A DNA stretch of 61,998 nt, the filler included, from Sanchytrium tribonematis (taxonomy: Eukaryota): assembly GCA_018985235.1 (NCBI GenBank). It is 11 parts of 11 records of this genome, joined end to end, with 100 filler letters (N's around TTAATTAATTAA, not from the genome) between each part and the next. Parts side by side here need not be neighbours in the genome. Positions count along the whole stretch, not along the records: positions 1 to 23,048 come from JADGIG010000078.1; positions 23,149 to 26,971 come from JADGIG010000798.1; positions 27,072 to 30,887 come from JADGIG010000799.1; positions 30,988 to 34,802 come from JADGIG010000800.1; positions 34,903 to 38,710 come from JADGIG010000801.1; positions 38,811 to 42,609 come from JADGIG010000802.1; positions 42,710 to 46,503 come from JADGIG010000803.1; positions 46,604 to 50,395 come from JADGIG010000804.1; 3 more parts are not named here. One strand, written 5' to 3'. How positions within the stretch are numbered: position 1 is the stretch's first letter; every line of letters starts with the position of its first letter. Both the position numbers and the translations under genes were made by a program. The notes beneath the pieces are model-generated. The model was not told the DNA's origin and did not search any database. It saw only the letters and a list, made by a program, of their open reading frames with translations. Positions 3,002 through 58,146 of this stretch are shown piece by piece.

Positions 3002-4052
3002 TTGTGTCACATTATGGACATTTTAAAATTGAAATTAGAAAGATTGGGATGTAACACGATTTTGGAGCAAAATAAACTCTCCAAATTAGAAAAAAACTTG
3101 TTCGATCAATCCGGTAAACCTCAGGCGATGCAATATTTTATAGTCTTAGTGAAATGGCTATTTCAATTAAATCAAATACAGCCGAAATGGAATTCCGAGA
3201 CCGAGCAGAATAAAATATTGGATGAGATATCTAGTATTTTTAAATCAATGAAAATCAGTGTGCCTTCAGCATCACTCAAACTAGGAAGCGGACCAGAGAT
3301 TGCAACCGCATTGAACGAATTATGCAACAAGGTTTTACCAGTAAATGGGAAAGTTGTATACAAAAATGAAAGTGTCCTTGGGAATGCGACTCAAAGGCAA
3401 CTGGAATACGAATTTATCGACGAGCAAATTACGCAGAAAAATCATGCTGAATCAAAAACAGACATATTTACTCCTTTGAATCTTGAATTTCAGAATTATG
3501 TGGTTCCTGAAATTTCAGTGTGGAATAGGGAAGTTGAGTCTCTCGACTTTTCAGAGCTCGTACCACATAACAACACAGATTGGAGAGTTCACTGGGAGCA
3601 AATCAATGGACATATACAATATATTTCTCAAAATCTGAACGGGCTAGAGGGACCTTTACTTCAAATGGTAAAATCAAATTCCGATATCTTGGAGAAAATC
3701 TTGGCGAGAGAAAAGCATTTAAATGAGGCATTCTCATCATTGGTATTCCCAACTCATTTAGATTTCGGAATATAGGCAAGTTTACAATCAGTTTCAATCA
3801 AATAATCTAGAGAAGACAAAAGAGCAGGAAAACATAAAACAAATGACCCTTCAATTATCTGAGACTTCTGGTGAATTGGATAAAATAATTAAACAGATGG
3901 ATGAATATGGTTCAAAAATAACAGATGCATCACCACTGACGGATATTAAGAATGCGATATCTGAGTTAAAAAAAGAGCTTCTACAAACTGACATCATCAT
4001 TAATGTATACAGGCAAGGCCATCTTCAAAAGACAATGGAGGTTTCTAAATAA
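3002..4052 (+). CDS. IFT57: Intraflagellar transport protein 57 (IFT57/HIPPI), 2 exons
   Basis: DWRVHWEQ and LEKILAREKHLN motifs, C-terminal coiled coil with DASPLTDIKNAISELK. The 19-nt intron 3743-3761 joins ORFs 3002 and 3843 in frame. True ATG probably 3014. Confidence 0.85.
3743..3761 (+). other. 19-nt spliceosomal intron (IFT57)
   Basis: GTATTCCCAACTCATTTAG; splicing gives FSSL|ISEYRQ, in frame to ATG 3843. Confidence 0.9.
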
Positions 4053-4097
4053 AATACAGAATATTTGGGTTTGAAACAACGTTTTTGTTTCGTAACA

Positions 4098-4301
4098 ATG
4101 GACATTGAGCTGTTATTAAACGCCCTTTTCGTTTACCCAAACCTTAATTCGAACCAAACAGATTACAGCGCTAAGCACAAAAAATTTAGGAACGACTTTT
4201 TAAATCCCAAAGTCGATCCTTTTTTACACCACCAAGATTTCCAAGTCAATAATTTGCCAGATACTGATATGATAGTAGACGAGGAAATAGTTGAAGAATA
4301 G
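4098..4301 (+). CDS. Small hypothetical protein
   Basis: ORF filling the gap between IFT57 and the deaminase; no recognisable motif. Confidence 0.4.
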   Translation: MDIELLLNALFVYPNLNSNQTDYSAKHKKFRNDFLNPKVDPFLHHQDFQVNNLPDTDMIVDEEIVEE

Positions 4302-4430
4302 TAATAAATTTATAATTTAGTTTATCGACACTTATCATCTATTTTTGCACCAAGCAAAAGTCTTTAATCATTCCTTTGGTTTTCATTGGTCCGTGTGAAA
4401 TCATAAGATCCTTTCAAACCAAACTAGACC

Positions 4431-4952
4431 ATGATTGAGCTGCCAAGTTGGTTGAATCCTGAAGACTACGAAGGAAAGAAAATGACTCATGAGGAAGCCA
4501 TGTCATTGGCTGTACAACTGAGCATGAAAAATATAGAAAACAATAGTGGCGGTCCATTTGGTGCCGTCATTTTATCACCTGTTGACAACACCGTAATAAG
4601 CGTGGGCGTAAATTTAGTAGTAACTCTCGGTTCTTCCATGTACCATGCTGAAATTGTCGCCATCTTACGAGCTCAGAAAAATCGACAATTATTTCGCATT
4701 AATGAAGGTATACTATTCACTTCTTCTCAACCTTGCTGTATGTGCTATGGCAGCTTGTTTTGGAGTGGAATTGATCAGCTTGTCATCGGAGCACGTAAAG
4801 AAGATGTTGAAACCTACACCGAATTTAAGGAAGGTCCCTTGCCGAGCGATTGGCAGTTGGAGTTGAAAGTCAGAGATATCAAGGTAAAAACGGACTTTTT
4901 AAGAGATGATGCTATTGAGGCGTTAAAACAGTACAGTAACGTCCACTATTAA
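4431..4952 (+). CDS. Zinc-dependent CDA-fold nucleoside/guanine deaminase (GuaD/NE0047-like)
   Basis: GGPFGAVI, HAE, PCCMC zinc motif, FWSGI, FKEGPLPSDW. Confidence 0.8.
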   Translation: MIELPSWLNPEDYEGKKMTHEEAMSLAVQLSMKNIENNSGGPFGAVILSPVDNTVISVGVNLVVTLGSSMYHAEIVAILRAQKNRQLFRINEGILFTSSQPCCMCYGSLFWSGIDQLVIGARKEDVETYTEFKEGPLPSDWQLELKVRDIKVKTDFLRDDAIEALKQYSNVHY

Positions 4953-4975
4953 AATAAAACTTATGGGAATTCTCC

Positions 4976-5365
4976 ATGTTCCAATTCAAGCGTTTCCATA
5001 CACATGATATTCTACAATTGTCTCACAAGCTTCTACCAAGACATAATCCAAAGGTAATGCATAATGACTCCGAAATAGACCTTAAATATTTCATGGAAAA
5101 AATTAGATCTGGGTCAGTCATAAAAATTAATTTTGATAGTGAGGATTTCACCGGAGTGATGATTCAAAAGAGGAAGAAAGGCATAGATTCGTCTATCCAT
5201 CTTCGTCAGCCCAATTACCACAGTACAGCTGTAGAACGAATGTTTAAAGTTCATAGCCCTAAGCTGTCATTAATTACTGTTATAAAGGAAGCGAAATGGG
5301 CCAGAAGAGCTCGATTGTACTACTTACGGGACCATCCAACCAAAGCAAAATCTGGATATAAATAA
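4976..5365 (+). CDS. Mitochondrial ribosomal protein bL19m (Img1-like)
   Basis: VERMFKVHSP and RRARLYYLRD L19 motifs; basic N-terminus resembling a presequence. Confidence 0.8.
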   Translation: MFQFKRFHTHDILQLSHKLLPRHNPKVMHNDSEIDLKYFMEKIRSGSVIKINFDSEDFTGVMIQKRKKGIDSSIHLRQPNYHSTAVERMFKVHSPKLSLITVIKEAKWARRARLYYLRDHPTKAKSGYK

Positions 5366-5375
5366 AAATATACAT

Positions 5376-7471
5376 TTACTCTTCGATACATAGAGATGGG
5401 GATTCTAAATTGATGTGCCACAGTTGTTGAGTGAAATCTAAAAATATTTTACCAGCTTCGTGTTTTTCCTCCTCGGAAGAATCTTCTAATTCAATCTGTT
5501 CAGATACCCTTACATTTGGCGTGGCCCCAAAATCATTTCCGTTCTTTGTATATCCCCTTATTCTATAAACATCATTTTTAGTCTTGGAGAAATAAAATTC
5601 GATTATATGTTTTGGATCTTTCTTTAAGTGCTCCTTGATCTTTTTACCAATTTTGTCAGTGAGCTGCACTAATGATTTGCGTTCTCCATCACTTACATCC
5701 AATGGTTTTTCCAAAGTACTGATCAAAATATGCAAATATTGCATCTTAAACATATAAATAAACATATCCTGCTTAAATAGTATTCTATGCAGCATTTTTA
5801 TGATACTGTGAAGTAAAACTGAATTCAGATCCATCTGTAATGCAGTCATGTAGCACTCTACAATGGACTCAGTCGCAAAATACTAAATGAACATGTAAAT
5901 ACATTTTCAAAGGTTGACACATCGACGGATCTTTCTGTTCCTTTCTGCTTCCTTTTCATGAATATAAAATTATTAATTCCACTATAAAATTCCAACGCTC
6001 TAAAGATCGAGTCGTTCAATAATATGCAACTTTTTATCAGTCCGTATCCGTAATTCCTTGCATCACGAGTCATTTGGGTCATGATTGTAAATAGTCTCTC
6101 ATCGTAAAACAACTTCGCTTGAATGGAAGTTGCTAAATCAAGAATTTCGTCATCGGAACATAATTCTTTCAAACTAGCAGAGTAATAGGCTAAACAGTCC
6201 GCCACTTTGGTAAATTCAGAATATTTTTCTTTCTCATCTGCTGCAACTTGAAAACATGACATCAAATATCTAATAAATCTAGTGGAATATAAATGGCTTA
6301 CCAAATTCCAATTCAGCTCAATGTCCGTCCCATCAATATTATATATAATCCGGTTCTTTTTGAAGCAATAAATCATGAATTCCAAAACTTGCTTGACCAA
6401 AATCATATAATAAAGTCTCGTTTCATCGCTTGTGTGTTGTTTATGGCTTTCCAAATCTTCCTGCAAAGTACTAAATAAAGGATTTGCGCCAGTATATATA
6501 AACTTTACAAGGATTTCTCGAATTAGAGCATGACCCTTTGGTGACAAGTAGTTTCTAGATTGATTTAATCCAACTGTAAATTTCTTCTTTTTACGATACT
6601 TGACTAGTTTAGCTTTGTTAAGATCCTCATAATCAGGATTTAAATTTCCAGAGACAGTTTTTATCACTTCGTCATCTACACCAATCAATTGTATGCGCGA
6701 TTTATATCTCATGGCAGAGGTTAACTTTTCTTTAGGATTAAGAATTTGCTCCTTCCTCATCAACTGTGCAAATTCGGAAGATCTCTCAAATAAACTTGGT
6801 ACATCCAAAATGAGGCTATGCATGATATCCAATAGAATCGAGTTCCATGATTTAAACTCCATCTTTCCTAATTGAGAACATACTTTTAAAATTAAATTAA
6901 ATAAATTACAATTTTTAAAGCAATTAATTAACTGCTCGTGATAAGATTCGATTTGAAAATCAGATTTTATATTTGTCGGGTCTTCTATTCTCAATAAATT
7001 TCTGAGAAATAACATACACATTCTTAATAATTGCTGGTCTTTGTCATCACGTTGTCTAAAATCTCGAGAAAATAGTTTTACAATCAGCTGCTTGACCAAA
7101 TTCATGTGATATTCATTACTAAATAGCTTTTTGTGATAAATCTGGATTTCTTCGTGATGTGTTGGCCAAGTTAAAGGTACAAGCAATTCTAGAACACTTG
7201 TTGCAATTTTTTTGTTATTCAAATGATCTTGCAAAATTGGTAACAAATCTGTTTCCGTGAACTTCTGATCAATCAGCCATTTTAAAGTTGGCCTTTGGTT
7301 TGTCAGTTCTTCTTCTTTCAATATATTTTTGATGTCTTGCAAAACTTCATTGCAACTATCACCCAGTACGTATGTAGGTTCATTAAATTGATTTAGTTCA
7401 ATACTACCCAGTGCATTAATCAAACTGACAAGTCTTCCAAGGTCGAAAAGAATATCATCGTCACTCTCCAT
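5376..7471 (-). CDS. TOF1: Timeless/Tof1/Swi1 replication fork protection protein, 2 exons
   Basis: ALG...YVLGDSC, DLLPIL, LELLVPLTWP and LRNLLRI Timeless N-terminal motifs; 20-nt intron 5883-5902 joins the two ORFs. Confidence 0.85.
5883..5902 (-). other. 20-nt spliceosomal intron (TOF1)
   Basis: GTATTTACATGTTCATTTAG; gives FEN|YFATESIVECYMTAL in frame. Confidence 0.88.
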
Positions 7472-7510
7472 GTTGCAAAAAGTTGAACATTAAATGCTCT
7501 ACCAAAATCC

Positions 7511-7517
7511 TTTCGCG
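7511..7517 (-). promoter_or_regulatory. Candidate SCB/E2F-type G1/S element CGCGAAA upstream of TOF1
   Basis: Exact CGCGAAA about 40 nt 5' of the TOF1 ATG in an AT-rich background. Confidence 0.4.
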
Positions 7518-7871
7518 AGATTTACTGCGCATTCTTTTAATGCCAAAAGGATTTATTTGAAGTCCTGAACAGAGCTCATTGGATAAACTTATGATTGGTC
7601 ACCCTCCAATTGTATTTTTTGTTATATATTTGACGTTTGCAGGGCAAGCTTAACGCATGTACCACAGAGATACAGATGGCGAAAAATTATCTCTAATTGC
7701 ACATCAATTAGTATCCGAAATCAGGAAAAGCAACCCAGAACAATTTTACTTTAGGTCTTCCGGGATCCCCCACATAAAGACTGTTCTTTTATTTGAATTA
7801 CAAAAACTAAAGAATCCCATGCTTATGCGCAATAAAAGACTCACGCGATCTAATTTTCGAAATAAATTTTA

Positions 7872-8612
7872 TTAACAAATTTCAATCAATTCTTCAGAGT
7901 CATCTACGACTCCATACCATTGCATTAAAAGATCCTCTCCACCTAGCTTGCTTTTCGAGCCATGTGTGTCATCTATATGTTCCGTCAAGTTGGATAACTT
8001 TTTATATGATTGCATGCAAAATGGACACTTCACTTGAAGATTTCCTTTATGCAGTTTTTGGTGTCTTATTAATGCAGATTTAAATCCAAAGTTCTTGTCG
8101 CAGACACTGCAGTGATGCTTTTTAATTTGAAAATGAATTGCTTCGATATGAGAATTTAAATTGTAATTGGAAACAAACGTTTTTTCACACAAATCATATG
8201 GACAAGAAAATATTCTTTTCTTCACATGCTTGGCTTCATGAATGATTTGCTCCGTAGGATGTTCTGATTGTATATGATCTTCCATTTGTTCAATTGGTAT
8301 CTTAATAAAACAAATACCGCAAACAACTAATTTCGATTTTTTTTCCTTTTTTACAACCATCTTTTTGGATTTATCATGACGCTTCATGTGCTGATTCAAA
8401 TTAGATTTATAAGTAAACTCTTTCCCGCAGTGACATTTAAATTCCTTGGGCTCGTGAACTTTATTGTGATCATTTAGATGAGCCAATCTTTTAAAAGTTT
8501 TTTTACAAATTTGACATTCATGCAGCCTCTCTTCGGAATGAACTAGCAAGTGTTCGTTGTAATGTCCTAGATGATCAAAAACTTTTTGACACTCTTTACA
8601 TTGTCGAGTCAT
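7872..8612 (-). CDS. Multi-C2H2 zinc-finger protein (about 7 fingers)
   Basis: Repeated CxxC-x12-HxxxH units; ATG at 8612. Confidence 0.85.
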   Translation of the reverse strand: MTRQCKECQKVFDHLGHYNEHLLVHSEERLHECQICKKTFKRLAHLNDHNKVHEPKEFKCHCGKEFTYKSNLNQHMKRHDKSKKMVVKKEKKSKLVVCGICFIKIPIEQMEDHIQSEHPTEQIIHEAKHVKKRIFSCPYDLCEKTFVSNYNLNSHIEAIHFQIKKHHCSVCDKNFGFKSALIRHQKLHKGNLQVKCPFCMQSYKKLSNLTEHIDDTHGSKSKLGGEDLLMQWYGVVDDSEELIEIC

Positions 8613-8638
8613 CAAATGATCGTTTCTCCTTTGTTACA

Positions 8639-11294
8639 ATGACACGAAAGGTTTTGCCGTCTTATCTCAAGCCTTCTCATTATAACTTGACAATATATCC
8701 AGACATCTACAAGCATAAATTCTATGGGGAAGTGGTAATCAAAATAGTCTCTAGTGGTTCTATCCATCTGAACGCTAAAGAATTAGAAATTTTGACAGTC
8801 AAGGTCAACGGTCAATCAAAAACATATACAAAAGACACTGAAAATGAAGCTATAATAATCGAAGGAGAGTATTTTGATGAAAATGAAGTGGTGATTAGCT
8901 ATACAGGAATTCACAATGATAAAATGAATGGCTTTTATCGAAGCAGTGTAGAGCTAGAGAACAGCAAGACGCATATGGTTGTTACTCAATTTGAGCCGAC
9001 TGATTGCAGAAAATGCATGCCATGTGTAGATGAACCCAACAAAAAGGCCACATTCCAGGTTTCAATTATTTGTGAAAATCATTTAACAGCCCTTTCAAAT
9101 ACAAGTGTGAAAGATATTTCAGATTTTGCAGTTCCAACAGATGTCAAAAGTCTTATTCATATCACAGAAAAACCATACAAAAAAGTTACTTTTGAAAAAA
9201 CTCCAATTATGAGCACTTATATTTTGGCGATGGCAACGGGAGAATTCGATTACATCGAGAGTTCTTCTGTTCCAGGGAATGGTTTGGATGCAATTCCAGT
9301 CCGAGCTTATGGTCCAAAAAATACAAAAGTGGGAAACATCAAGGAAGCAAAGTTTGCTTTAGATGTGACATGTCGCGCATTACCAGAGTTTGCTGAAAGA
9401 TTCGATATGCCGTATCCAATTGAAAAACTAGATCTTCTTGCTGTGCCTGATTTTAGTGCTGGAGCCATGGAAAATTTCGGTTTAATTACATTCAGAACTA
9501 TTTTGATGTATATTACCGAGTCTTCTTCCTTACAACACCAGCAACAGTGCGCATATGTTAATTGTCATGAACTGGCACATCAATGGTTTGGGAATAGTGT
9601 GACGTTCCAATGGTGGCAGGAATTATGGCTAAATGAAGGATTCGCCACAAAAGCTGGTTGGTATATCACAGACATTTTATTTCCGGAGTGGAAAATTTGG
9701 GACAAATTCATTGCAAATGACTATTTAAACGGCATGAATTTGGATTCTTTATTGACCACTCATCCTATTGATGTTCCTGTGGATGATCCTAACGATATCG
9801 GACAAATATTTGATGCTATTTCTTATAGCAAGGGTGCTACTGTCATCAAGATGCTGTACGACAATTACGGTGATAAATTTATAAAGGGCGTAGCCAGCTA
9901 CTTGAAGGAGTTTCGTTGGAAAAATGCTACTAGTGAGGATTTATGGAGAAATGTCAGTGCTTCGTGCGAATTTGATATTTCCAATTTGATGAGAAAATGG
10001 ACGACTATTGCTGGATATCCATTTATTGTAGTCGATAAGAATCTTAAATTAAGACAGCAACGTTTTTTAATGGAAGGATCTCAAGAAGAAACATGGCCAA
10101 TTCCATTAGGTCTCCAATGTTTTGAGGTCAGAAAAGATGGTATATACGCAAGTGAGATAAAGCCTTTACAATATCAGCTTATGGAAAAAGTAGAACATCA
10201 ATTGCAATTATTTCCTTGTACCAAACTCGTTGCAAAAATTCAGTTGTCCGAAGAATTTAGTTGCTTTAAGCTAAATATTAAACAGTCCACAATGGTTCGA
10301 GTTCAATATCATGACATTACGCCCTTGTTAAAATTAGTGGAAGTCCAGCTAAAAAACAAGCTGGAAATTTTAAGTGCTGGTGACAGGCTTGGAATACTTA
10401 ACGATATGTATAATCTTGCGCAATCAGGAAAGTCAAGTGTGCTACAGTACCTCAACGCTTTGAAATATTATAAGGACGAAGAGGACTATTATGTTTTGAA
10501 TGACCTAGCTCAATCGTTACAGACTATACTTGAAATTTTTACCGATTCTACTGTGACAGCAAAGGTGAACTCGCTACGAAGAGACATTTTTACGTCTATT
10601 GCTTTCGATTTAGGCTGGGACTATAATGATGATAATCATTTGAAACGAACTTTGGCAATATCCCAAGCAGGATTGGCGAATGAAAAAAGGTAATTTTGTA
10701 TAATATAGAATTGTTGCTGAAGCGGAGAAGAGGTTTCTTGAATTTATGGACGGAAAAGACTCAATTAATCCAAATTTGATTAGCAAAGTGTTTCAGATTG
10801 TTCTTGTTAATTCTGCAACGATTGAAAATTATAACAAGGTCAAGAATTATTACCTAAACTGCACACTAATGGACAGAAAATTAGGAGCTTTAGGCACTTT
10901 AGGGCATATCAAAAACAAAGCCTTGATTCAGGATTGCTTATCAATGCTTTTAAGCGAACAAGTGAGAGCTCAAGATGTCATTTACTTACTACAAGGACTT
11001 GGAAATAATGCAGAAGCAAGAAAAATGACACTTGACTTTGTGAAGGAAAATTGGGAAAAGCTGACCTTATTATTAGAAGGCTCCTTAAATTTACTAGGAA
11101 GCTGCATTTCACGATCTTGCTGCTATTTTAGCGATGACGCAATTGCAGATGACATTCAAAACTGCTTTTCTGCCAAAAAGGAATGGAAGCAAATCAGTAG
11201 ATCTGTCGAGCAAACAGTCGAGAAAATTAGAAATCGAGCTAAATGGAACAAACGAGATTCAAACGATGTTTTAAATTGGGCTACTTCTAAATAA
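8639..11294 (+). CDS. M1 family aminopeptidase (Ape2/puromycin-sensitive type), 2 exons
   Basis: TQFEPTD, GAMEN, HELAH-x18-E, ISYSKG and ERAP1-like C-terminal region; 19-nt intron 10690-10708. Confidence 0.93.
10690..10708 (+). other. 19-nt spliceosomal intron (aminopeptidase)
   Basis: GTAATTTTGTATAATATAG; gives NEK-R-IVAEAEKRFLEFMD, in frame to 10746. Confidence 0.9.
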
Positions 11295-11494
11295 ATGAAG
11301 ACGCGTTAGCCTAAATTAATTACTAAAGTTTTTCATAGGATATAGGGAAAACCTTTTTTTGGTTGACTTATTTTCAGGTTAGATTTTTTGGTACTGAGAT
11401 TTGATTAGCCAATCACGTAGAATTGGCGTAATTCAATACAAGCGTGTACGCCTCTCAAACGCGGTCCTTTTAAAGATCACTTTGGACTTTTGAA

Positions 11495-11857
11495 ATGCAA
11501 AGCAAACGCAGAACTTCAGAGCCCGAGTCTATTTGGAGCAGAATCAACCAGATAGTTTTGTCTGAATTGGATGAAGACCAAATCGAACTTCGAAGAGATT
11601 CCAAGGAAGAGCTTGATAAATCCAGCATGAATTTTAAAAACAATCGGTTTCGAAGGTATTCCGTCCACAACAATCCTAGTTCAACGATTCCTTCCCTTAA
11701 GCTGTCAAAAAAAGTGTCGTCAGATATAGCCAAACGGTTATACAAAATATACGTATTAGAACACCGTTCGAAGAACAGATGGAAAAGAGATTTACCGCTG
11801 CGGAACAAGGTGCTGCAAGAAAACTTTAGAAGAGTCAGTAAATATTACTACTTTTAA
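11495..11857 (+). CDS. Hypothetical protein
   Basis: 120 aa ORF ending 3 nt from the convergent neighbour. Confidence 0.45.
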   Translation: MQSKRRTSEPESIWSRINQIVLSELDEDQIELRRDSKEELDKSSMNFKNNRFRRYSVHNNPSSTIPSLKLSKKVSSDIAKRLYKIYVLEHRSKNRWKRDLPLRNKVLQENFRRVSKYYYF

Positions 11858-11860
11858 GAT

Positions 11861-13369
11861 TTATTTAGATGTGCGAGTTGGCATGCGTTGCTTCATTTCA
11901 ACCATTCTTTTATAATCTTCTTCAAAATAAGGTATCGGGTGGTAAACGTAAAGTGTGGATATTATCAAAAGTCGATCTTTTTCGCTATCTTGTTCTTGAG
12001 TTATAAACATGTCCAAGATTTTTCCATCTTGGTCTTTACAGGTAAACACAGAAGGTGCGTTTGAATTAGCTTTGACACCAACAATAAACATGTCTTTGAC
12101 CCATGGTCTTCTCAGGCTTAATGCCACACCTACATTGTTTTTATGAAATATGACCGATTTTTTAAATTCCGAGTCATTTTCATCATCCGGAAGAAGCCAA
12201 AATGCAACCAACATGATGGATTTCTTTAAATCCTTGATGTGACTAAGGTAAGTGTTCATTTCCTGTACTGGAATAGTTTTTTGAAATTCAATATGTGGTG
12301 AGAAAACAGTTTCCATCACATTGTGAGTGATCCCATAAACTTGATAAGCATATCCTTTGAAAGTAGAAAATGGAAGGTGGATTGTGCCTTGCCATTTTTT
12401 TATTTCAATCGGAGCGTCAATGTTCATATCATCTTCTACATCTTCCTCGTCGTTAATTTCAAATTCCAAAGGCTCCTCTAATTTTATAGGTTTGTAATCA
12501 GTAAACTCGGGCACGTCGAATTCAGGGGTGCTGTATTCCATTGCATAATGATGAACCTCTTCTTCTCCTTTGCTCGTTTTGCGAGTGTAGCCTTCAACAA
12601 TGTTCAATCTTTCCTCGGCAGTATTAGCAATATCTTCTACTGTGGTTTCGTCTGATATCAGCCAAGACATAACAGTATCGTAGTCAGATTCCAGATAAGC
12701 CCTTGCGTGGTCCTTGTTCTCACGTAAATCTAATTTTAATTTTAAATAAACATTTTGACACTCAATTTCATCTCTGCAAGTATTTTTAAAAACGTTCATG
12801 AATCTTGTAAAGCCATCAAATTCAGCAAGTTTTGCGTAATAAATTCTGGATATATGTGAAACATTTTTTCGAATAGTTTGGGAAAGAATTTCTTTATCAC
12901 GATTTCGAAAAAAGTTGTTTAACGTTCGCTCAAAATTTGAGTCACTTAATAATTGCAAATCTTCCTCTTCTAAACTATTGAAAAAAAATTGTAAATTTTT
13001 CAAGCTCTTTTCCTTGAATGAATCAACGTAAGTTTCCTTAACAATTTCTAGGAGATTTTCATTCACTTTTTTTAACCTTTGCTCCAATGGAGTCAATTTT
13101 TTTGGTCCTAGAACAGTTTCAGCTTCTTTGAGTTCAATTGGCAGATTATGCTCTTTTTCACACAAGCACAAATTTTCTTTAAAAAGCTTGTTAATTAATT
13201 TTTTGCTTTCAATTTTTAAAATTTCTAGAGTAGATAATATTGGCGATTTTTTAATCTGAGTGGTTTTTTTAGGACGAGTTTGGATATCAGTTTTTAAATT
13301 TTCAGCATTGTCTTTTATTTCTTCCTTGTAAGATTCCATGACGAGCGCCTCATCGACTTTTGTATCCAT
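11861..13369 (-). CDS. Putative TFIIS-central-like plus SPOC domain protein (Bye1/PHF3-like)
   Basis: Helical middle region followed by WQGTIHLP and a SPOC-like C-terminal pattern. Confidence 0.5.
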   Translation of the reverse strand: MDTKVDEALVMESYKEEIKDNAENLKTDIQTRPKKTTQIKKSPILSTLEILKIESKKLINKLFKENLCLCEKEHNLPIELKEAETVLGPKKLTPLEQRLKKVNENLLEIVKETYVDSFKEKSLKNLQFFFNSLEEEDLQLLSDSNFERTLNNFFRNRDKEILSQTIRKNVSHISRIYYAKLAEFDGFTRFMNVFKNTCRDEIECQNVYLKLKLDLRENKDHARAYLESDYDTVMSWLISDETTVEDIANTAEERLNIVEGYTRKTSKGEEEVHHYAMEYSTPEFDVPEFTDYKPIKLEEPLEFEINDEEDVEDDMNIDAPIEIKKWQGTIHLPFSTFKGYAYQVYGITHNVMETVFSPHIEFQKTIPVQEMNTYLSHIKDLKKSIMLVAFWLLPDDENDSEFKKSVIFHKNNVGVALSLRRPWVKDMFIVGVKANSNAPSVFTCKDQDGKILDMFITQEQDSEKDRLLIISTLYVYHPIPYFEEDYKRMVEMKQRMPTRTSK

Positions 13370-13506
13370 GTTTGAAAAGGGGATTCAATTTTCTTGTATT
13401 TGACAGAAGCATTTTAAAGATAATAATTGTGATATTAAAAGTAAAGCAGAACAAATTTTAAAATTTTAAAGTCCTATAAATTCTTGAAATATTTCATTTT
13501 TGATAC

Positions 13507-13941
13507 ATGTCACAAGTTCCTTTCTCAAATCCACAAAGCGAATTGAGCAACCCACAATCAGCAGACAGTAATATGCAAATTAACACCAACAATAATGCTG
13601 TTGTTGACTCTAAACAAAAGAATGAGCCAAGTGTTGCAGAAAATGATTTGCAAGTGATGCAAAATTCTTTTGTGACCTTACAGTCTCAAATCGACGACCT
13701 TGTTCAATACTGTAAGACAATCGAAGGTGAAAAGAAAGAATTAGTTGATAAATACAACGATTTAGTTGATGAATACAACAAGAATGTCAACTATACCCAA
13801 AAGCTGCATGAAATGCTCAAAAATTTCGAAGTCAACGATTTGGACAAGGTAATTAAAGACATGCAATCTATGATCAGCGAGGATGAACGTAAAAAGGTAG
13901 ATGAAGAGGTTAAAAATATCTTGGCTAAACTTGAGCAGTAA
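13507..13941 (+). CDS. Coiled-coil hypothetical protein
   Basis: 144 aa with a heptad-rich C-terminal half. Confidence 0.6.
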   Translation: MSQVPFSNPQSELSNPQSADSNMQINTNNNAVVDSKQKNEPSVAENDLQVMQNSFVTLQSQIDDLVQYCKTIEGEKKELVDKYNDLVDEYNKNVNYTQKLHEMLKNFEVNDLDKVIKDMQSMISEDERKKVDEEVKNILAKLEQ

Positions 13942-14007
13942 ATTATGTATTTTCCAAATTTGAATCGACCCATTTCCAAGGTATAAATAATTTTCCCGTG
14001 TGTATCA

Positions 14008-15639
14008 ATGTCAATTAGGCAAAATAACGTGATTGATTTAACAGGCATAAACACGGAAGATACAGCGCGTGTCAAATATGTAGATTTGACTTGCGAACAA
14101 CCTGACAAAAGACTTTTAGAACCAAATGATGAAGAGAACACTCTTTCAATACCCTGGAATGTTATGGACCTTACAAATTTATCTTCTGAAGAAGAATCTG
14201 ATATATTTTCTTCAAATATTATGGATGTTCATTTTGATAAGGAACATCCTAAGTATTCAAAACAAGCAAATGAAACAAAAACAATTGATAAAAAGCAACA
14301 ACCCGAATTTATGACAAGCATTACTGAATATAGCTCCAGGCGGTATAATTTACATTTGCAAAATGATTTTCACGATGTAATATTTCACGATAATAGTACA
14401 TCATATTACCAAAACGAATCTGAATTTGGCTCTCTCAATTCCTTCGCATCGGGTCCCGCGCTTGATGTTTTTGTTCAAAAGTTTCCAATAGATGAGACTT
14501 CTCATAATATTGAGGACCAGGACTCTAGTTTTGCGTTTAGAAACGTTGAATCGCAAGATATTGAATCTAAAAGCAAAGATTTACCAGCAGCTATATCTCA
14601 AGAAGATTCACCAACTAGTTCTTTTCAGAAAGAAAAGTATTTGAAGCCAACAATTATCCCTAATAGGAGCAGAATGTTAATATATGAGCATGATCCAGCA
14701 CAGAGGTTTCACGAATATAAATACTTTGACATTGTGTTCTACAGTTTTGGGAATTGCTATTCTCTTGCAGAGTCTCAAATTGAATTAGAAAATATAATAT
14801 ACTTAATATCTTATGTGGAAGACAAATTTATGTATAAAGTTTCATCCAAGCACAATGAGGCTGAGAATTTTACAAGATTATATGGCAATATAGCAATATT
14901 TCCTTTCCTTAAAATGGAAAAGACAGGTTTGTTTCGACTACTAGACAAATGGAGTTTTGAAAGTAGGGAATATGAATTTCTGTTGTCACCTTATACCCAT
15001 AGAACACCTCTTAAATTAGCGGATTCCTACGAGTGTCTTTCTGCAAGAGAGTTTTTAAATTTGTATTTTGAAAATAAAGACCTGGAATATGAATGTCGTA
15101 ATTGCGAGTGTAAGCTACATGGCCATGCCAGTATTGAGAAAACTGCCAAAATATTAGGTTTACATATTATAGAAAGCTGTCAATTAAGTGAGCTCTATCG
15201 ACCTACTTTTGTTGAAAAGATTTTGTTTGGATGCAGATTAAATTATGTGATGTTAGAATCCATAAGCGAATCTGATGAATCGCCTGACTTAATCAATAAT
15301 CCATCAGTCACCAGAAAGAGAAGGAATAAGCGATTAAACAAGTATAAATTTGAGTCTTTTCCCATTGATTTTTTATTGAAAAAGAGTGATGTTGATAAAT
15401 TATTTTGCAGTAATTCCCACTTCATGGAAATTCTTAAAATTCATAAATGTAAGTGTTTAAAAGGACTGGGCGGATACGATGGCTTCAGGGCGTTTCTTTT
15501 GTGCGGAAAAAAGGAAGACGGAATGGTGGAGTGCTTAGAAATATTAAAAAAATTGAACGAGATAACATTTATGGATTTGAAGGAAGAAATTCTTGACGAG
15601 CGAGGTATATATAATGCTGTGAATTTTCACTTAAAATAG
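14008..15639 (+). CDS. Hypothetical protein with three N-terminal SIM-like motifs and Cys/His clusters
   Basis: VIDLT, YVDLT, VMDLT followed by an acidic stretch; CRNCEC..HGH and C..SH..CKC later in the protein. Confidence 0.6.
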   Translation: MSIRQNNVIDLTGINTEDTARVKYVDLTCEQPDKRLLEPNDEENTLSIPWNVMDLTNLSSEEESDIFSSNIMDVHFDKEHPKYSKQANETKTIDKKQQPEFMTSITEYSSRRYNLHLQNDFHDVIFHDNSTSYYQNESEFGSLNSFASGPALDVFVQKFPIDETSHNIEDQDSSFAFRNVESQDIESKSKDLPAAISQEDSPTSSFQKEKYLKPTIIPNRSRMLIYEHDPAQRFHEYKYFDIVFYSFGNCYSLAESQIELENIIYLISYVEDKFMYKVSSKHNEAENFTRLYGNIAIFPFLKMEKTGLFRLLDKWSFESREYEFLLSPYTHRTPLKLADSYECLSAREFLNLYFENKDLEYECRNCECKLHGHASIEKTAKILGLHIIESCQLSELYRPTFVEKILFGCRLNYVMLESISESDESPDLINNPSVTRKRRNKRLNKYKFESFPIDFLLKKSDVDKLFCSNSHFMEILKIHKCKCLKGLGGYDGFRAFLLCGKKEDGMVECLEILKKLNEITFMDLKEEILDERGIYNAVNFHLK

Positions 15640-15662
15640 TTTACTTTTAGGTTATTAAATTT

Positions 15663-18053: not shown

Positions 18054-18057
18054 TAAA

Positions 18058-44820: not shown

Positions 44821-45627
44821 TTATTTAATATCCATCTCTGCATATATCAATTGATTCTCTTGTGTAGCCACGTCATGCAATACTGGCTGCTCATTTAATT
44901 TCAAAATGCAAGAAGATCCTGCAAATTTGGTTTTTCCTTTATAATGCGTTTCAATTCCACTTCTATTCGCTATTAAGCATACAGATTCACTCCCAATTAA
45001 AGGTCTCAATCGATCTACCCAATAATAAATCGTATCCATATTTTTATCATTTGACAAACTAGTTTGATCCGGATGCAACCAATTATTACTACAAATCACC
45101 ACATCAGATTCATGTGCTTTACATGCATTTGCGAATTCAAATGCCTCATACGGTGCTTTAAATGCTTTCGGATTCATATCCATGCAAATCCCAAATGAAC
45201 ATTTCAATTTTCTTCCATTTATATCCAATTCTGTACTATAAAATCCATTACCCTCATCACTCCATGATTCATCCAATTCATATAAATGTGATTTATGATG
45301 CATAAATTGCAATTCTCCATTTGGATTCACCAAAAACAATGAATTATAAAATTTGTGATTTTCATAATGTGGTGTCCCATATGCCAAATAACAATTTAAT
45401 GATTTCGCATGTTGTTTTGCCCATTGTAATGGTGATGGGTCATTGATATAGGGTTGTATTTCGGATTGATTTTCAAAAACATAACCTGTAAAACACATTT
45501 CTGGTAATACGAGAATATCTAATGGCTTCTTCAATTGAGATAGTAAGGTATTGCATGTATTGATATTGTGTTGGATTTGTTTGTGCTTTGGATTGAATTG
45601 TAAAATGGCAACTCGTAATTTCATCAT
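44821..45627 (-). CDS. NTA1: Protein N-terminal amidase Nta1 (nitrilase fold)
   Basis: LPEMCFTGY, KSHLY..DE.W, GICMDMNP..FKAP.EAFEFA, NRSG.E...FAGSS. Confidence 0.88.
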   Translation of the reverse strand: MMKLRVAILQFNPKHKQIQHNINTCNTLLSQLKKPLDILVLPEMCFTGYVFENQSEIQPYINDPSPLQWAKQHAKSLNCYLAYGTPHYENHKFYNSLFLVNPNGELQFMHHKSHLYELDESWSDEGNGFYSTELDINGRKLKCSFGICMDMNPKAFKAPYEAFEFANACKAHESDVVICSNNWLHPDQTSLSNDKNMDTIYYWVDRLRPLIGSESVCLIANRSGIETHYKGKTKFAGSSCILKLNEQPVLHDVATQENQLIYAEMDIK

Positions 45628-45883
45628 TTAGAGGGGGAAACTTTGAAAGAACTATTTTAGAGAACAGCAGAGACTAGGTGTTTGAATCAATAGATTAATA
45701 GCCATGGATCCATTAAAATTTGCAGGAGATGGCTGTACTACCATCTGATACCTCCCAACATCCAAATTAATTGATTTGAAAATAGGGACAAACATGATCA
45801 TTTGGATTTCTATTATGCTAGCTCATACTGTATCGAATGCCACTCTTCAAAATGATTATAATTTTGTCCAGAGATAAAACGAT

Positions 45884-47597: not shown

Positions 47598-48114
47598 ATG
47601 TCATTTTCTTTTGCAAGATCTTTAATAAGAACAGAGACAAATAAGACTTCCACCGAAAGTGATATTAACGCACAAGCTAACTTTAATGCATCATGGGCAA
47701 ATGAAAAAGGTGTTTGGCTCACAAATTTGGTTTTGATAAGTAGCTTTAAGATCTTATTCGGCATAATTCCATATATATCAGTTGAGCTCTCTTGGACTTT
47801 AACAAATATATCATATAATTTTGTAATTTAATCTAATTTAGGCTACATACCTTCTATTTCATCAGTGGTATGGAACTCCATTTGAATTCAATCAGGGTGC
47901 ATGCGATGACCTTACTCTTTGGGAGCAAATGGACCATGGTGATCTGTTCACACCGTCCAAGAAATATTTTACAGCTGTACCGATCCTCTTATTTCTTCTG
48001 TCCACTCATTATACACATTATGATATTTCTATGTTTTGTATCAATATATTGGCACTTATATTAAATTTGCGACCGAAGATTCTCTCCGAGGATGACCCAA
48101 AGAAGACAAAATAA
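47598..48114 (+). CDS. ORM1: ORM1/ORMDL sphingolipid regulator, 2 exons
   Basis: NFNASW...KGVW, SWTLTN, GTPF, LTLWEQMD, VPILLFLLSTHY; 19-nt intron 47823-47841. Confidence 0.93.
47823..47841 (+). other. 19-nt spliceosomal intron (ORM1)
   Basis: GTAATTTAATCTAATTTAG; restores YNF|ATYLLFHQWYGTPF. Confidence 0.93.
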
Positions 48115-50495: not shown

Positions 50496-50909
50496 GTCCC
50501 CACCAAACACCAATCTTCTGAATATGTGGATATTTCCATCATTTCCAAATTACAAGCACTTTCCAAAATCCCACTCTTTCAACAATTGATGAAAGCAGAA
50601 TCACAAAATGGAAAACATCATCATAAAGTGAATGATGTTGAGAAACATGGCAAATATGTTGGAAAACATAAACACAAAGATGGTAAAAAGCATAAAAACA
50701 AAAAAGGTGGTCATAAAAAGCATCACAAAAAAGACGACAAGGACGACAAACATCACGGTAAACACGGCAAAGGAAAGAAGGACGACAAACATGATGATAA
50801 ACATGGCAAAGAAAAGAAAGATGAAAAGCATCATCACAAAACTGAAAAACCAAAAACATCCCCAAGTCATGGCCAGCACCATGAGGGCAAACAATCGTAT
50901 GACAAATAA
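50496..50909 (+). CDS. Protein with His/Lys/Asp-rich low-complexity tail, 5'-truncated
   Basis: KKHHKKDDKDDKHHGK-type repeats; begins at a contig edge. Confidence 0.6.
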   Translation, partial: VPTKHQSSEYVDISIISKLQALSKIPLFQQLMKAESQNGKHHHKVNDVEKHGKYVGKHKHKDGKKHKNKKGGHKKHHKKDDKDDKHHGKHGKGKKDDKHDDKHGKEKKDEKHHHKTEKPKTSPSHGQHHEGKQSYDK

Positions 50910-51797: not shown

Positions 51798-51992
51798 CTA
51801 CCCCTTGTGGTCGTACATCATTTATTTGTACACTTTGAGCAAGTCGCACAATGAAATACACATCATTTATTCCAATTTTAATCATCTTTTATGCCATTTA
51901 CAATCTATAAATGGTCTATAATCCAATGCGTCACAACATGCTTCATCTATTTTTAAATCCACTATAAATCAATCTCTTCCCATTTTCAATCA

Positions 51993-52625
51993 ATGCACGG
52001 TACTCAAACAGGATATGGACAACAAAAACCAACTATGAAAGAGAAGATTGAAATGAAAGCAGAGCAAGTTAAAGAGAAATTGGGAATGAGTCATCCTCAA
52101 CCAAATACATATGGATCTGCACAGCAACAAACCCATCAACCTGGTCAAACACACAAGACTGGTCATCAAACACACCAGACTGGTCAAATGCATCAAGGTG
52201 CTCAATATGGACAACAGGGTCAAATGGCTCAAGGTGCACATTCAAAACCATCTGCAGCTCAAAAAGTACAAGAGAAATTGGGAATGGGACACCATAATCA
52301 ACAACAGGGACATCCAAATGATCAAATTTACAATCAACAAGGTCATCAAACTGGTCAACAGCCAGGACAACAAGGATATGTTCAAAATGATCAATACAAT
52401 CAAACTTATGGACAATCTGGACAACAGGGTCAACATATGGGACAACCTGGTCAACAGGGATATAGTCATCAAGATCAATATGGAAATCAATCCATGGGTC
52501 AAAAAGTAGAAGAGAAATTGGGAATGGCACCAAATCAAGGTACATCGCAATATCAAGGAAATCAAGGAATGGGATCAGGAATGGCACCAAATAGTAATCA
52601 AGTACCACCAGGACCACGTTATTAA
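51993..52625 (+). CDS. Gln/Gly/His-rich hydrophilin with three dehydrin K-segment-like motifs
   Basis: EQVKEKLGM, QKVQEKLGM, QKVEEKLGM; no Cys or Trp. Confidence 0.75.
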   Translation: MHGTQTGYGQQKPTMKEKIEMKAEQVKEKLGMSHPQPNTYGSAQQQTHQPGQTHKTGHQTHQTGQMHQGAQYGQQGQMAQGAHSKPSAAQKVQEKLGMGHHNQQQGHPNDQIYNQQGHQTGQQPGQQGYVQNDQYNQTYGQSGQQGQHMGQPGQQGYSHQDQYGNQSMGQKVEEKLGMAPNQGTSQYQGNQGMGSGMAPNSNQVPPGPRY

Positions 52626-54278: not shown

Positions 54279-54378
54279 NNNNNNNNNNNNNNNNNNNNNN
54301 NNNNNNNNNNNNNNNNNNNNNNTTAATTAATTAANNNNNNNNNNNNNNNNNNNNNNNNNNNNNNNNNNNNNNNNNNNN

Positions 54379-54921
54379 CTTGGGCATTGGATGATCCTTA
54401 TAGAGCATGTACACATAATAAAGGAGTAATGAATGGAGTGATAGCTGTGGCTTTGGCGACAGGGCAAGATACCCGAGCCTTGGAATCGAACGTCCATGGA
54501 TATTGCTCTCAAAATGGATACTCCCCGTTAACGTCTTATAGCATTGAGAATGATAATTTTGTTGGAAAGATTGAAATACCACTTCCAGTCGGTACTGTTG
54601 GTGGTTCCATTCAAACACTTCCTTCAAGTCGTGCGGCATTGAAAGTTTTGGGGAATCCATCGGCGGGTGGACTCGCAAAGGTAAATTATATTTATTTAGA
54701 TTATGTCTTGTGTTGGGCTGGCATCTAATTTTGCTGCTTTAAGGGCATTGGCGACTGAGGGCATACAAAAAGGACACATGGCTCTTCATTCTAGAAATTT
54801 AGCTATTAGTGCAGGAGTTCCACCAGAGCTTGTTCACGACTTTAGCTTAAGACTTATTGAAGAAAATAAGATCACTTTCCACGATGCTAAATTACTATGG
54901 GAATCTTATAATATAAATTAA
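54379..54921 (+). CDS. Class II (bacterial MvaA-type) HMG-CoA reductase, C-terminal part, at least 2 exons
   Basis: [55 protein letters not shown]; 19-nt intron 54681-54699. Confidence 0.9.
54681..54699 (+). other. 19-nt spliceosomal intron (HMG-CoA reductase)
   Basis: GTAAATTATATTTATTTAG; restores [11 protein letters not shown]. Confidence 0.93.
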
Positions 54922-54931
54922 TTTTTGATAC

Positions 54932-55834
54932 ATGGATTTACCGTTTGTGACATTTTATCTTTTCTTGCGTTATTTATACAGCGAATTAATTTTTAGAATT
55001 TTTTGTATCCCCAGAAGTAGAAATATACTGATAGTGGGATGTAGCAGTGGTATCGGCAAAGAGATGGCTGGTTTGTTGTGTCAAAATTTCAATATTATTC
55101 TGGCTAGTAGAAAAATTAAAGATTTGGAGCGCTTAAAGCTTGCTCTGAAATCAAAATCTGTGAAAAATATCGCTATTAGACATTTGGACATAAGAAATAT
55201 TCAAGACTTCCAACAATTGTTTTTAGATTGTGAAACTTTAGTTGGAAAAATTGATACGGTGGTTGTGGCTGCAGGAGTATTCGATTTACATAACCTGAAG
55301 GATGCTGATTACTTTTCGAAAAGCAAATATATGATTGAGACTAATTTTTACGGCCCAATGGCACTCTATCTAGAGTTTGAGAGATACACTACTCAAAATT
55401 TGGTGAAACATCCTTATTTCCTTGTCATATCCAGCATTGCAGCCGAATCTCCATTTTATAATTCAACAACTTATTCCTTATCAAAAAAATCGATAGAAAA
55501 CTTCTTGTCGATGAAAAGTAAAGAAAATTCTTCTATTTCGATCACAGTAGTTCGACAGGGTTATGCGAAAACTAAACTGACTGAATGGACAAATACCATT
55601 CCTTTTTCTATAACAGCACTACAATCCGCGCAAGACATTGTGTATGCTATGAAGCGGAGGTGTTTTTGGGTGACTGTGCCTTTGTATCCTTGGAATATTG
55701 CCACAAAATTATCAAAATTGATTCCAATTATGCTAATTAATAGACTTATCAAGTATGAATTTGAATTGAATACTAAAAATAATGAAAAGGGAATTGAAAA
55801 ATTGAAAAAACATATTTACAATGAAGATTTATAA
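54932..55834 (+). CDS. Short-chain dehydrogenase/reductase with N-terminal membrane anchor
   Basis: GCSSGIG, AAG, TNFYG, SS, YSLSK. Confidence 0.88.
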   Translation: MDLPFVTFYLFLRYLYSELIFRIFCIPRSRNILIVGCSSGIGKEMAGLLCQNFNIILASRKIKDLERLKLALKSKSVKNIAIRHLDIRNIQDFQQLFLDCETLVGKIDTVVVAAGVFDLHNLKDADYFSKSKYMIETNFYGPMALYLEFERYTTQNLVKHPYFLVISSIAAESPFYNSTTYSLSKKSIENFLSMKSKENSSISITVVRQGYAKTKLTEWTNTIPFSITALQSAQDIVYAMKRRCFWVTVPLYPWNIATKLSKLIPIMLINRLIKYEFELNTKNNEKGIEKLKKHIYNEDL

Positions 55835-55835
55835 A

Positions 55836-56864
55836 TTATGGGTAAACTCTGAGCTTTTTCTCTAAGGTTATCATTGTGACAATTTGATCCCTTACTCTGC
55901 TAGGAATGGAGCCAAAGCATTGCTGGCAATATCCCTTGTCGTCAACTTGTATGAAATTCTTTTTTACCAAGGAGCAATGACAACCTGCGCAAACAAAATG
56001 ATTGGCACAAAATACTTTTCCGACAGCCTCCAAAGCTAAATAAATTAGTAATACATTCACCAGGAATAACTTCGTAGCAATAACCACATACTTGGCCCAT
56101 CATTTCAGAGTAATGGTACTTACAATATGCTTTGCTTTCATATTCAAAAAATGTCATATTTTCAAATGGTTTTTCGCATTTACAACACACAAAATGCTCT
56201 TGATGAAATGTTTTTCCCATAGCAGTGACTTGCAAACCCATTATCAATTGTTTACAAGCGAAGCAAATAGCATTTGATACTTGCTCAAAATGTTCTTGAC
56301 AGTAAAGCTTATCTAAATGGGCTCTCGCATTTCCATCGAGTGTGATATTGCATGTGGTGCAATTGAAATGGTTAGCATGAAATCTCTCCCCATCAATTTC
56401 TATGATGTCTCCATCCAACTGTTGTTTGCATTTACTACATTGATTCGAGGTTTTTTGTGCTTCCAATTTTGCATTCGTGTCATAACAAGATTTGCAATAT
56501 GGTTGATCTTTAAATTTATAGAACTTTTTACCATTATTTAAACTGGTTTCACAATCGTTACAGACAAAACAATCTGTGTGGTAATATTGGTTCAAGGCTG
56601 AAACTAAAGTCGATTCTATATTTTCACCGCATCTATTACAGACCTTCACGAATTGACTTTGAAAATGTTCTTCGCAGTATGGCTCTTCCTGTTCAACATA
56701 AAAAGTTTGATTTTCTAGATCCATATGACAAACGCGACATCTACATAAAATATAGATTACTTAAAGCAGTGAGCGTGAAAAAATATTCCACCAGCATCTA
56801 GGACTTCATTGTCATCATTTGAGAACGCTTTTTTACATCCAGCGCAATAATCTTCTTTATTCAT
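55836..56864 (-). CDS. Multi-LIM (about 5) paxillin/PINCH-like protein, 3 exons
   Basis: Repeated CxxC-x16-18-HxxxFxCxxC..CxxH/C units; introns 56741-56760 and 56036-56054; ATG 56864. Confidence 0.88.
56036..56054 (-). other. 19-nt spliceosomal intron (LIM protein)
   Basis: GTATTACTAATTTATTTAG; restores GE-S-LEAVGKVFCANHF. Confidence 0.9.
56741..56760 (-). other. 20-nt spliceosomal intron (LIM protein)
   Basis: GTAATCTATATTTTATGTAG; restores HCF-K-CRVC. Confidence 0.92.
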
Positions 56865-56967
56865 GGAACTTTGTGGCTTGAATACTTGGCTTTGAAAAAT
56901 CGAAAAAATTTACTTTATTAATTCAAATGTAGACTGTTTAATAACTGATTTCAAAGATAAATAATAA

Positions 56968-58146
56968 TTATTGCTCTGCCCTTCTTTCGATTTCTTTCTT
57001 CAAGTTCTCATTTTCGCGTTTGAGGCCATCATTTTCGTTTATCAACATCTGTATTCTTTGATTCAACTGCGTGACAATATCAATAACTGAGGTAGAAGCA
57101 ACTGTGCTAGGTACACTGCTTTGAGATTCGGAGCGTATCGACCTAAATAAATTTGAATTACACAAAACTGTGTCGAGGAAGACTATTTACATTGGGAGTG
57201 GCAGTGCCACTTTCCATTGGGGTGGTAGTGGTGCTTAATTTGTCCATGACAAAATTTAGCATTCTAGTCTGATACTCATTTTGTCTCGCGAGGGCCTCTA
57301 ATTGAATAGTAACTCGATCAAGGGCGTCCTTCTGGACCGGAATACTAATAGATTCCTCAGATTTTGCTCGGTTCATGCTATTCATTTGACTATTTAAATT
57401 TCCTAATGAACCATTGCTAGTATTTCTGGCTATTTTTTGTGGATTTTGGGCATTTTGTAAAGTAGAGTTGGGGGAAGTAAAAGAATTGTCTAGCACTTCT
57501 GGAACATTTGATACTTCAAATCTACCTCTTTTTCCAACGACTGATTGTGGCGTACCAATTGATGGACTATTTTGATTGCTCAAGTCTTTACTTAAAGAAT
57601 CTTGCCGATTTAAGGACTCGGCGTCTAATTTCTTTAAAGTTTGATCCACCGCCTGTATATCAAATCTTTGCTTCATAGGATCGCCTGATTTTTCAGATAC
57701 ACTAAACCGACCTTTCTTTTTTTCTTCCACTTCACTAAGTGCAGATTCTTTATTTTTTGCACTTAAACTGTCTTGCCTATCAACTATAAATCTAGATTTT
57801 TTAATTGCTTGAGGAGGCAGAGACGGGGAAGCTGGATTTGATACATTACCATCAGAGTCAATACTTTCTTTACGAGATAGACTTGTAGTTCCTGCATTTT
57901 CTTTGTCGACATTCAATGCACTATCTGTGCCCTTAATTAATTTGTCCAAGCCTGGTTGATCTGTTTTTTTATCTGAAAAGTCCCACGACATTCCCTGTTC
58001 ACTTTGTGGATCTTGACGACTTTGTTGCTTATGCTCTCTCTGGTATACTGGAGGAATTAAGGATATTAAATTGTTGACTAAATACTGCTTCCTTTTTGAT
58101 TGCCTAAAAAAATGATGATGAAGTAATTTCTCAGCAGTTGGTCTCT
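56968..58146 (-). CDS. C-terminal part of a STE20-family (OSR1/SPAK-like) kinase, at least 2 exons
   Basis: RPTAEKLLHHHFF kinase end, SWDF, four RFx[VI] motifs, terminal coiled coil; 19-nt intron 57143-57161. Confidence 0.7.
57143..57161 (-). other. 19-nt spliceosomal intron (kinase)
   Basis: GTAATTCAAATTTATTTAG; gives HSF-V-SIRSES in frame. Confidence 0.85.

Follow-up and report, generated by a model that had tools for sequence, protein, structure and literature searches.

Probable spliceosomal introns of 19 and 20 nucleotides in genes of the sanchytrid fungus Sanchytrium tribonematis

The window analysed here is a 61,998-nucleotide (nt) stretch of DNA from Sanchytrium tribonematis (assembly GCA_018985235.1), made up of a 23-kb piece and ten contigs of ~3.8 kb each, with N44-TTAATTAATTAA-N44 linkers between them; it has a G+C (GC) content of 35.0% and is densely coding. 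Genes in this window are interrupted by 17 stretches of 19 or 20 nt that are very probably ordinary major-type (U2) spliceosomal introns, shrunk to near the smallest workable size. The initial annotation had proposed 17 GT-AG introns of these lengths whose removal restores reading frame and named protein motifs, and all 17 coordinates held up, spread over seven of the 11 contig pieces. Read on the strand of the gene, every one runs from GT to AG, 12 being 19 nt long and five 20 nt. Excision of each yields a single frame without a stop over 50 codons per side, the exceptions being natural gene ends at the histone deacetylase (HDAC) and SPG1 genes; stops are met when the same sites are read unspliced. 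Removal also recovers the motifs GTGK/T in UPF1 (the slash marks the junction), W-D in SKP1, WFYIH in the b561 gene and GTPF in ORM1.

Intron set, signals and junctions

Introns occur in 14 of the ~46 genes in the window, or ~0.35 per kb of coding sequence by a rough count. They are 81% A+T (AT), and phases 0, 1 and 2 are represented by 8, 2 and 7 of them. The extended 5′ site consensus of U12-type (minor) introns is RTATCCTT; it is found in none of the 17, which places them outside the minor class.

When the 17 introns are aligned at their 3′ ends, position −8 is T and position −6 is A in every one, a signal absent from the initial annotation. The 5′-aligned consensus is GTA(A/T)T, followed by an AT-rich spacer of 6–7 bases and then T-n-A-n-n-(T/A)-AG. 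The T−8/A−6 pair is present in 17 of 107 other AT-rich GT…AG 19–20-mers of the window (Fisher p 7e-12) and in 51 of all 616 background GT…AG 19–20-mers, and the probability of finding it in all 17, given each intron's own composition, is ~7e-13. By sequence, the A at −6 is branch-point-like, lying close to the 3′ end in surroundings compatible with U2. Its distance to the AG is constant in 17 of 17, while that from the 5′ site varies, being 14–15 nt here and 16 nt in relatives. The element measured in the ruler-like minimal splicing system proposed earlier would be this branch-to-AG distance, not that between 5′ site and branch, nor total length; two relatives imply introns of 21 nt. Strict-motif counts are 17 at 19 nt and 8 at 20 nt, falling to 5 and 3 once the 17 introns are masked; because the strict motif was derived from the 17 themselves, the excess at these two lengths is to some degree built in. 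With the 17 masked, no length from 14 to 60 nt stands above background (4.4 ± 1.7 per length).

The exactness of the cuts was examined at six junctions by a blind deletion test, in which all frame-compatible cuts 1–99 nt long and lying within ±40 nt were scored against homologs without regard to the bases at their ends (five hits for UPF1; the acyl-CoA oxidase homologs were used for the junction test only). The claimed cut was the top GT-AG option at all six, and was first or joint first overall at four, among 1,414–2,534 options, with ties sharing the claimed length. These four are the first SPG1 intron (41223–41242, +, 20 nt, phase 0; joint best of 1899 deletions, ties all 20 nt), the second SPG1 intron (41630–41649, +, 20 nt, phase 0; joint best of 1414), the intron in CCT8 (TCP-1 theta; 29719–29737, −, 19 nt, phase 0; top of 2033) and the first UPF1 intron, in the Walker A motif (31750–31768, −, 19 nt, phase 0; joint best of 2534, ties all 19 nt). 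At the second UPF1 junction (31193–31211, −, 19 nt, phase 1) 1565 deletions were scored, and at that of acyl-CoA oxidase (18332–18350, −, 19 nt, phase 2) the claimed cut was the sole GT-AG option in 977 open deletions.

A Pfam profile is gap-free over four junctions: IFT57 (3743–3761, +, 19 nt, phase 0), where residue 249 of 250 in exon 1 corresponds to profile position 272 and residue 1 of exon 2 to 274; the M1 aminopeptidase (10690–10708, +, 19 nt, phase 2), with ERAP1_C passing from 141 to 145; ORM1/ORMDL (47823–47841, +, 19 nt, phase 0), from 47 to 50; and HMG-CoA reductase (54681–54699, +, 19 nt, phase 0), from 334 to 338. The SKP1 intron (38170–38188, −, 19 nt, phase 2) splits a Trp codon; exon 1 matches the N-terminal part of Skp1, and residue 1 of exon 2 aligns with residue 89 of a 163-residue Skp1 chain. 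Relatives back the HDAC site (33109–33127, −, 19 nt, phase 2), a frame join at which the relative P0412 ends at the same residue, and both introns of a LIM-domain gene. The first of these, 56036–56054 (−, 19 nt, phase 1), after which the LIM domain picks up at profile position 16, has its site matched in P0415 (20 nt), P0416 and P0417; at the second, 56741–56760 (−, 20 nt, phase 2), the spliced join agrees with P0415, which has no intron there, and P0417 has a 21-nt in-frame insert. Altogether 14 of the 17 junctions have support from homology or from relatives.

A listing of runs for this organism gave one, of DNA and here named X1, and no RNA run. Contigs of the DNA run X1 cover 3000–19500 and 54379–58146 and show neither joint nor gap over these stretches; X1 is possibly the source of the assembly and is to that extent not independent of it. 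A second haplotype in X1 differs by 29 substitutions and no insertions or deletions across 3.8 kb (54379–58146), and by 3 across the 16.5 kb covered in the first piece. In the spliced frames, exon variants on both sides of the introns are synonymous in nine of nine cases in HMG-CoA reductase and in five of five in the LIM gene. All three intronic variants leave GT, −8, −6 and AG intact: a T-to-C change at −3 turns TAG into CAG in the HMG-CoA reductase intron, and the LIM intron 56741–56760 varies at +7 and −5. These variants bear on the suggestion that the broken frames reflect assembly errors, pseudogenes or ribosomal frameshifts, which might be entertained where contigs are short and come from a single DNA source, perhaps X1 itself. 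We regard it as extremely improbable because the 19–20 bases that are extra relative to homologs carry a fixed motif, because the sites recur in other organisms, and because the variants keep both frames synonymous.

A further candidate intron of 20 nt, outside the original list, lies in an ORF (open reading frame) with no homology support (4301–4320, +, phase 2). It joins 82 and 38 open codons, and its motif score of 18.4 ranks eighth among 13,396 GT…AG stretches, in line with the true set. Three motif-like stretches of other lengths were set aside. The 17-mer at 45615–45631 (+) carries the full intron motif and runs antisense to the start of a carbon-nitrogen hydrolase gene, so that it is either a chance match or an intron of an untranslated region; splicing of the 17-mer at 8301–8317 would disrupt an intact ORF; and the 18-mer at 38544–38561 lacks a start upstream of it and has GAG at its end. 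An ab initio scan for ORF-joining cuts of 8–300 nt proved too noisy and was left unused.

Intron lengths in other sanchytrids

Placement of the organism by phylogeny, proposed with the initial annotation, was carried out with two quick trees, built from 62 and 54 rows selected among the hits. The window groups with the relative P0006 in the CCT8 tree (Shimodaira–Hasegawa-like approximate likelihood ratio test, SH-aLRT, 100; long branches) and with Amoeboradix gromovi in the SPG1 tree (SH-aLRT 98). The best CCT8 match is P0006 (58%), which shares a 90% cluster with an A. gromovi protein in EukProt, and the next named matches are from Blastocladiomycota and other early fungi (43–45%); across its middle exon, SPG1 is 96% identical to that of A. 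gromovi. Membership in Sanchytriomycota, with A. gromovi as the closest relative bearing a name, follows from these protein trees together with the GC content, the published sanchytrid genomes having 34.6 and 36.3% in the accessible text of PMC8371127. The description of the organism as flagellated was partly right: according to the accessible text of PMC10459994, sanchytrid zoospores bear a non-motile pseudocilium.

Intron lengths in relatives were derived from protein calls made without regard to introns, which read on into them; there were ten such tails, of which five were informative. The CCT8 tail of P0006, at the same position as the intron in the window, implies 19 nt, and its next codons agree with the intron-free P0126 at 7 of 8; P0133 (SPG1) likewise gives 19 nt, P0415 (LIM) 20 nt and P0254 (SPG1) 21 nt, and P0417 (LIM) has a 21-nt stop-free in-frame insert flanked by conserved residues. 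In four of these five the encoded residues require A at −6, and in two they require T at −8. Tails ending too early for a length are those of P0127 (which breaks at the CCT8 site too), P0134, P0412 and P0416 and the 3′ tail of P0417; the A. gromovi entries break at three window sites and also end too early to be measured. Sanchytrid introns would therefore span at least 19–21 nt, and stop-free in-frame introns would escape a reading based on frame breaks. Because relatives imply 21 nt, the earlier phrase "exactly 19 or 20" is valid for the window and not for the group.

P0126 is a full-length CCT8 of 543 residues, 95% identical to the intron-bearing P0006, on a contig of 1,640 nt that is too short to hold the intron, which suggests that it is a transcript. 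Among the matches listed from metagenome contigs (at least 80 loci, 24–52% identity), none was sanchytrid-like, and the genome contigs and viral contigs searched held no DNA of these relatives either. Outside the sanchytrid clade, the SPG1 protein P0246 (ENA; contig of 1,051 nt) has a six-residue insert at the site of the second SPG1 intron. Decoded by hand, this insert reads as an 18-nt in-frame intron fitting T−8/A−6, and it may mark a further lineage with tiny introns.

The restriction to 19 and 20 nt could be in part a detection artefact, with real introns whose true lengths run from ~18 to 22 nt or extend into a long tail; we give this slightly less than an even chance. The sample is 17 introns, P0417 carries a stop-free in-frame 21-nt insert at the 56741 site, and P0254 implies 21 nt. 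On the other hand, the spliced CCT8, acyl-CoA oxidase and UPF1 proteins contain no in-frame intron-like insertion relative to their homologs, with the 17 introns masked the strict motif turns up 5 times at 18 nt and twice at 21 nt, as in the background, and within ORFs the sense strand offers a single 21-mer, 43745–43765, which is rich in A and falls outside the 90 highest scores.

The reading of the 17 stretches as U2-type introns has several points against it. The 62 kb analysed is well under 1% of the ~11-Mb genome (the published sanchytrid size), so that rare long introns could be missed. One shifted 19-nt cut scores 1 point more than the claimed one at the second UPF1 junction, and one non-GT-AG cut of 34 nt scores 0.4 more in acyl-CoA oxidase. 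Three of the 17 junctions lack homology support and rest on frame join and motif: those of Timeless (5883–5902, −, 20 nt, phase 0; 529 and 167 open codons joined), of a DOMON/cytochrome b561 gene (27585–27604, −, 20 nt, phase 2; 616 and 149 codons joined, with the b561 match of exon 2 starting at profile position 37) and of a gene without Pfam match or homolog, separate from the LIM gene and upstream of it (57143–57161, −, 19 nt, phase 2; 327 and 57 codons joined, motif score 19–20). Since variants are synonymous in only three of seven cases in the adjoining intron-less short-chain dehydrogenase and in one of three in IFT57, the variant test is informative for two genes only. The lengths from P0254 and P0415 assume that a TAG stop is the 3′ end, and a longer intron is possible; P0126 may be an intron-less allele, as the CCT8 intron is missing from the longer contigs of P0007 and P0128, members of the same clade. 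Finally, the putative branch A is assigned to −6 by position only, and splicing itself is deduced from DNA and protein sequences.

Origin, mechanism and comparison with other short introns

The second SPG1 site is present in three sanchytrid hits. Of 118 hits from outside the sanchytrids, 24 read on through it at the identical residue, Microbotryum intermedium and Coprinellus aureogranulatus among them; it is common to Dikarya and would therefore be an old fungal intron that shrank. Presence varies among sanchytrids for the first SPG1 intron (P0133, P0134 and P0254 run through without it), the CCT8 intron and one LIM intron. This variation, like the uniform length, might be put down to recent mobile (introner-like) insertions, or to DNA segments that are excised from the genome. 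Near-identical introns at new positions, the mark of an introner family, were not seen; all 17 are distinct, and identity among their variable cores is 0.38, against 0.39 ± 0.016 after shuffling. Together with the SPG1 site common to Dikarya and the unbroken X1 contigs across the two covered stretches, this makes such an origin very improbable. Under shrinkage of ordinary introns, genome compaction would have trimmed old introns by deletion, with most of them lost and the remainder gained or lost site by site among sanchytrids.

Splicing probably proceeds by intron definition, each intron being recognised across itself. U1 and U6 would pair with the GTA(A/T)T end, and U2 would bulge the A at −6; with the 3′ AG set five bases beyond the branch A, no space would remain for a polypyrimidine tract. 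Such a lariat would consist of a loop of 14–15 bases (16 in relatives with 21 nt) and a 5-base tail. No small nuclear RNA (snRNA) was found in the window by an Rfam scan, which gave one chance hit, and no other component of a spliceosome was noticed there. More speculatively, since neither 19 nor 20 is divisible by three, a retained intron would shift the frame, and nonsense-mediated decay, of which UPF1 lies in the window, could clear the transcript. A decay filter of this kind, acting against lengths that are multiples of three, is conjectured on the strength of work on Paramecium.

Retention might itself be frequent if these introns are poorly spliced as in microsporidia, dampening expression; such a state concerns efficiency and is compatible with U2-type introns, and we think it unlikely, though worth keeping in mind. 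Sanchytrids are likewise intron-poor, reduced parasites, and short introns of Encephalitozoon cuniculi are spliced at <20% (PMC6349667) and the 16-nt introns of Mikrocytos at 63% (PMC10245619), as far as the accessible texts report. Against this, the introns here lie mid-gene or late in the essential CCT8, SKP1 and UPF1 (Walker A) genes, and the 18–21-nt introns in the nucleomorph of Bigelowiella natans are highly spliced according to the accessible text of PMC6009652.

The proposal that tiny spliceosomal-type introns arose in a fungus independently of ciliates and nucleomorphs is supported. The list of known cases that came with it was incomplete, omitting mikrocytids (16–17 nt), myxobolids (median 22 nt) and microsporidia (~25 nt). 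The systems compared here are taken as the accessible texts of the cited papers describe them. Introns of the ciliate Stentor coeruleus are 15–16 nt, with GU-AG ends, a GUA start and ~76% AU (PMC9505925). They resemble those of S. tribonematis in having two adjacent lengths and a branch A that is constant in position (10 of 15, or −6) and leaves a 5-nt tail, and the commonest Stentor intron likewise carries U at −8 together with A at −6 (PMC9505925). Unlike the present set, they form a lariat loop of 10–11 nt rather than the 14–15 nt predicted here and are known genome-wide, with transcript support and an snRNA inventory. Chlorarachniophyte nucleomorph introns are similar in size at 18–21 nt (PMC6009652, PMC10245619, PMC2483917); they belong to a relict green-algal nucleus with ~3 introns per gene and weak signals, whereas the present ones occupy an intron-poor fungal nucleus and share an invariant branch-like motif. 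Mikrocytos mackini, also a reduced parasite, has introns of two adjacent lengths, 16–17 nt, with conserved sequence, but it is a rhizarian, its introns are 3 nt shorter and its reduced spliceosome is documented (PMC10245619).

Closer to fungi, short GT-AG introns occur in E. cuniculi (~25 nt) and Rozella (~30 nt), parasites that are fungi or allied to them (PMC6349667). Theirs are longer, the 37 introns of E. cuniculi having a TAAYTT branch motif and including some long ones (PMC6349667), and microsporidia and Rozella form a separate branch, Rozella standing apart from the window in the SPG1 tree. Myxobolids (median 22) and dicyemids are parasitic opisthokonts with ultra-short introns, medians being 22–27 nt; their spread is wider, and their putative branch A lies farther from the AG the longer the intron (PMC13644364), in contrast to the constant spacing here. 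A branch anchored to the AG without a polypyrimidine tract is shared with Yarrowia, Trichomonas and Giardia, which differ in having long introns and a strong ACTAAC-type branch motif where only T-n-A is seen here; a fixed branch-to-AG distance has arisen repeatedly in intron-poor lineages (PMC2483917). The accessible part of a survey of 644 fungal genomes (PMC8476143) holds no shorter case. No prior description of sanchytrid introns or of their spliceosome was found in the literature, although supplements or subscription papers may mention them. Most likely, then, what is new is an unreported fungal origin and a fungal minimum, tiny fixed-length introns as such being already known.

All 17 introns within the 62 kb, and the five of five lengths inferred in relatives, fall in 19–21 nt. 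We consider it reasonably likely that Sanchytriomycota as a whole splices only introns of 19–21 bases, the shortest set in fungi and opisthokonts, having reached Stentor's exact 3′ geometry by convergence with a spliceosome remodelled around a lariat loop of 14–16 bases, and that this was overlooked because introns were disregarded when the proteomes of the phylum were predicted. Near-minimal introns that arose independently inside fungi, where the yeast spliceosome offers a close structural and genetic reference, make it testable which parts (U1, U2AF, and branching factors such as Cwc25 and Isy1) must change for a loop of 14–15 bases, and whether the 5-base tail from branch to AG, the same in Stentor, is a hard floor.

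Protein annotation and other features of the window

The unspliced ORFs of the window stand verbatim in EukProt in all ten cases looked up, as does the ORF of the SPG1 middle exon. Mis-annotation had been predicted, and these read-through entries bear it out; its cause is the intron-blind use of TransDecoder on contigs, by which proteins were called according to PMC8371127, and not a 20-nt minimum intron size in gene finders. The accessible text of that paper has the word "intron" once, in the title of a reference, and that of PMC10459994 also once, in a reference. Introns split about 30% of the genes in the window, and at such sites the sanchytrid proteins in public sets end early or drift; phylogenomic studies of the phylum, and inferences of gene loss in it, can be affected by these truncated or drifting sequences. 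Acyl-CoA oxidase (18058–19921, −) and HMG-CoA reductase (54381–54915, +) are both present and intron-split, and steroid and fatty-acid metabolism are reported missing in sanchytrids in the accessible text of PMC8371127.

Ty3/gypsy-like retrotransposon ORFs, along with a decayed integrase region, lie at 23211–26881 (−) and 58391–60457 (+). They encode protease, reverse transcriptase, RNase H and integrase, with gag-pro and pol in different frames, and neither piece bears introns. A cysteine-rich frame at 42710–43193 (−), without Pfam match, contains an in-frame TGA near 42876 that no intron of 19–21 nt explains. A protein with FHA, GAF and nucleotide cyclase domains is encoded at 15663–17330 (−). 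Three low-complexity repeat proteins without Pfam match are rich in Pro/Glu (38814–39608, −), Lys/His/Asp (50496–50909, +) and Gly/Gln (51957–52625, +), and are possibly wall or spore proteins.

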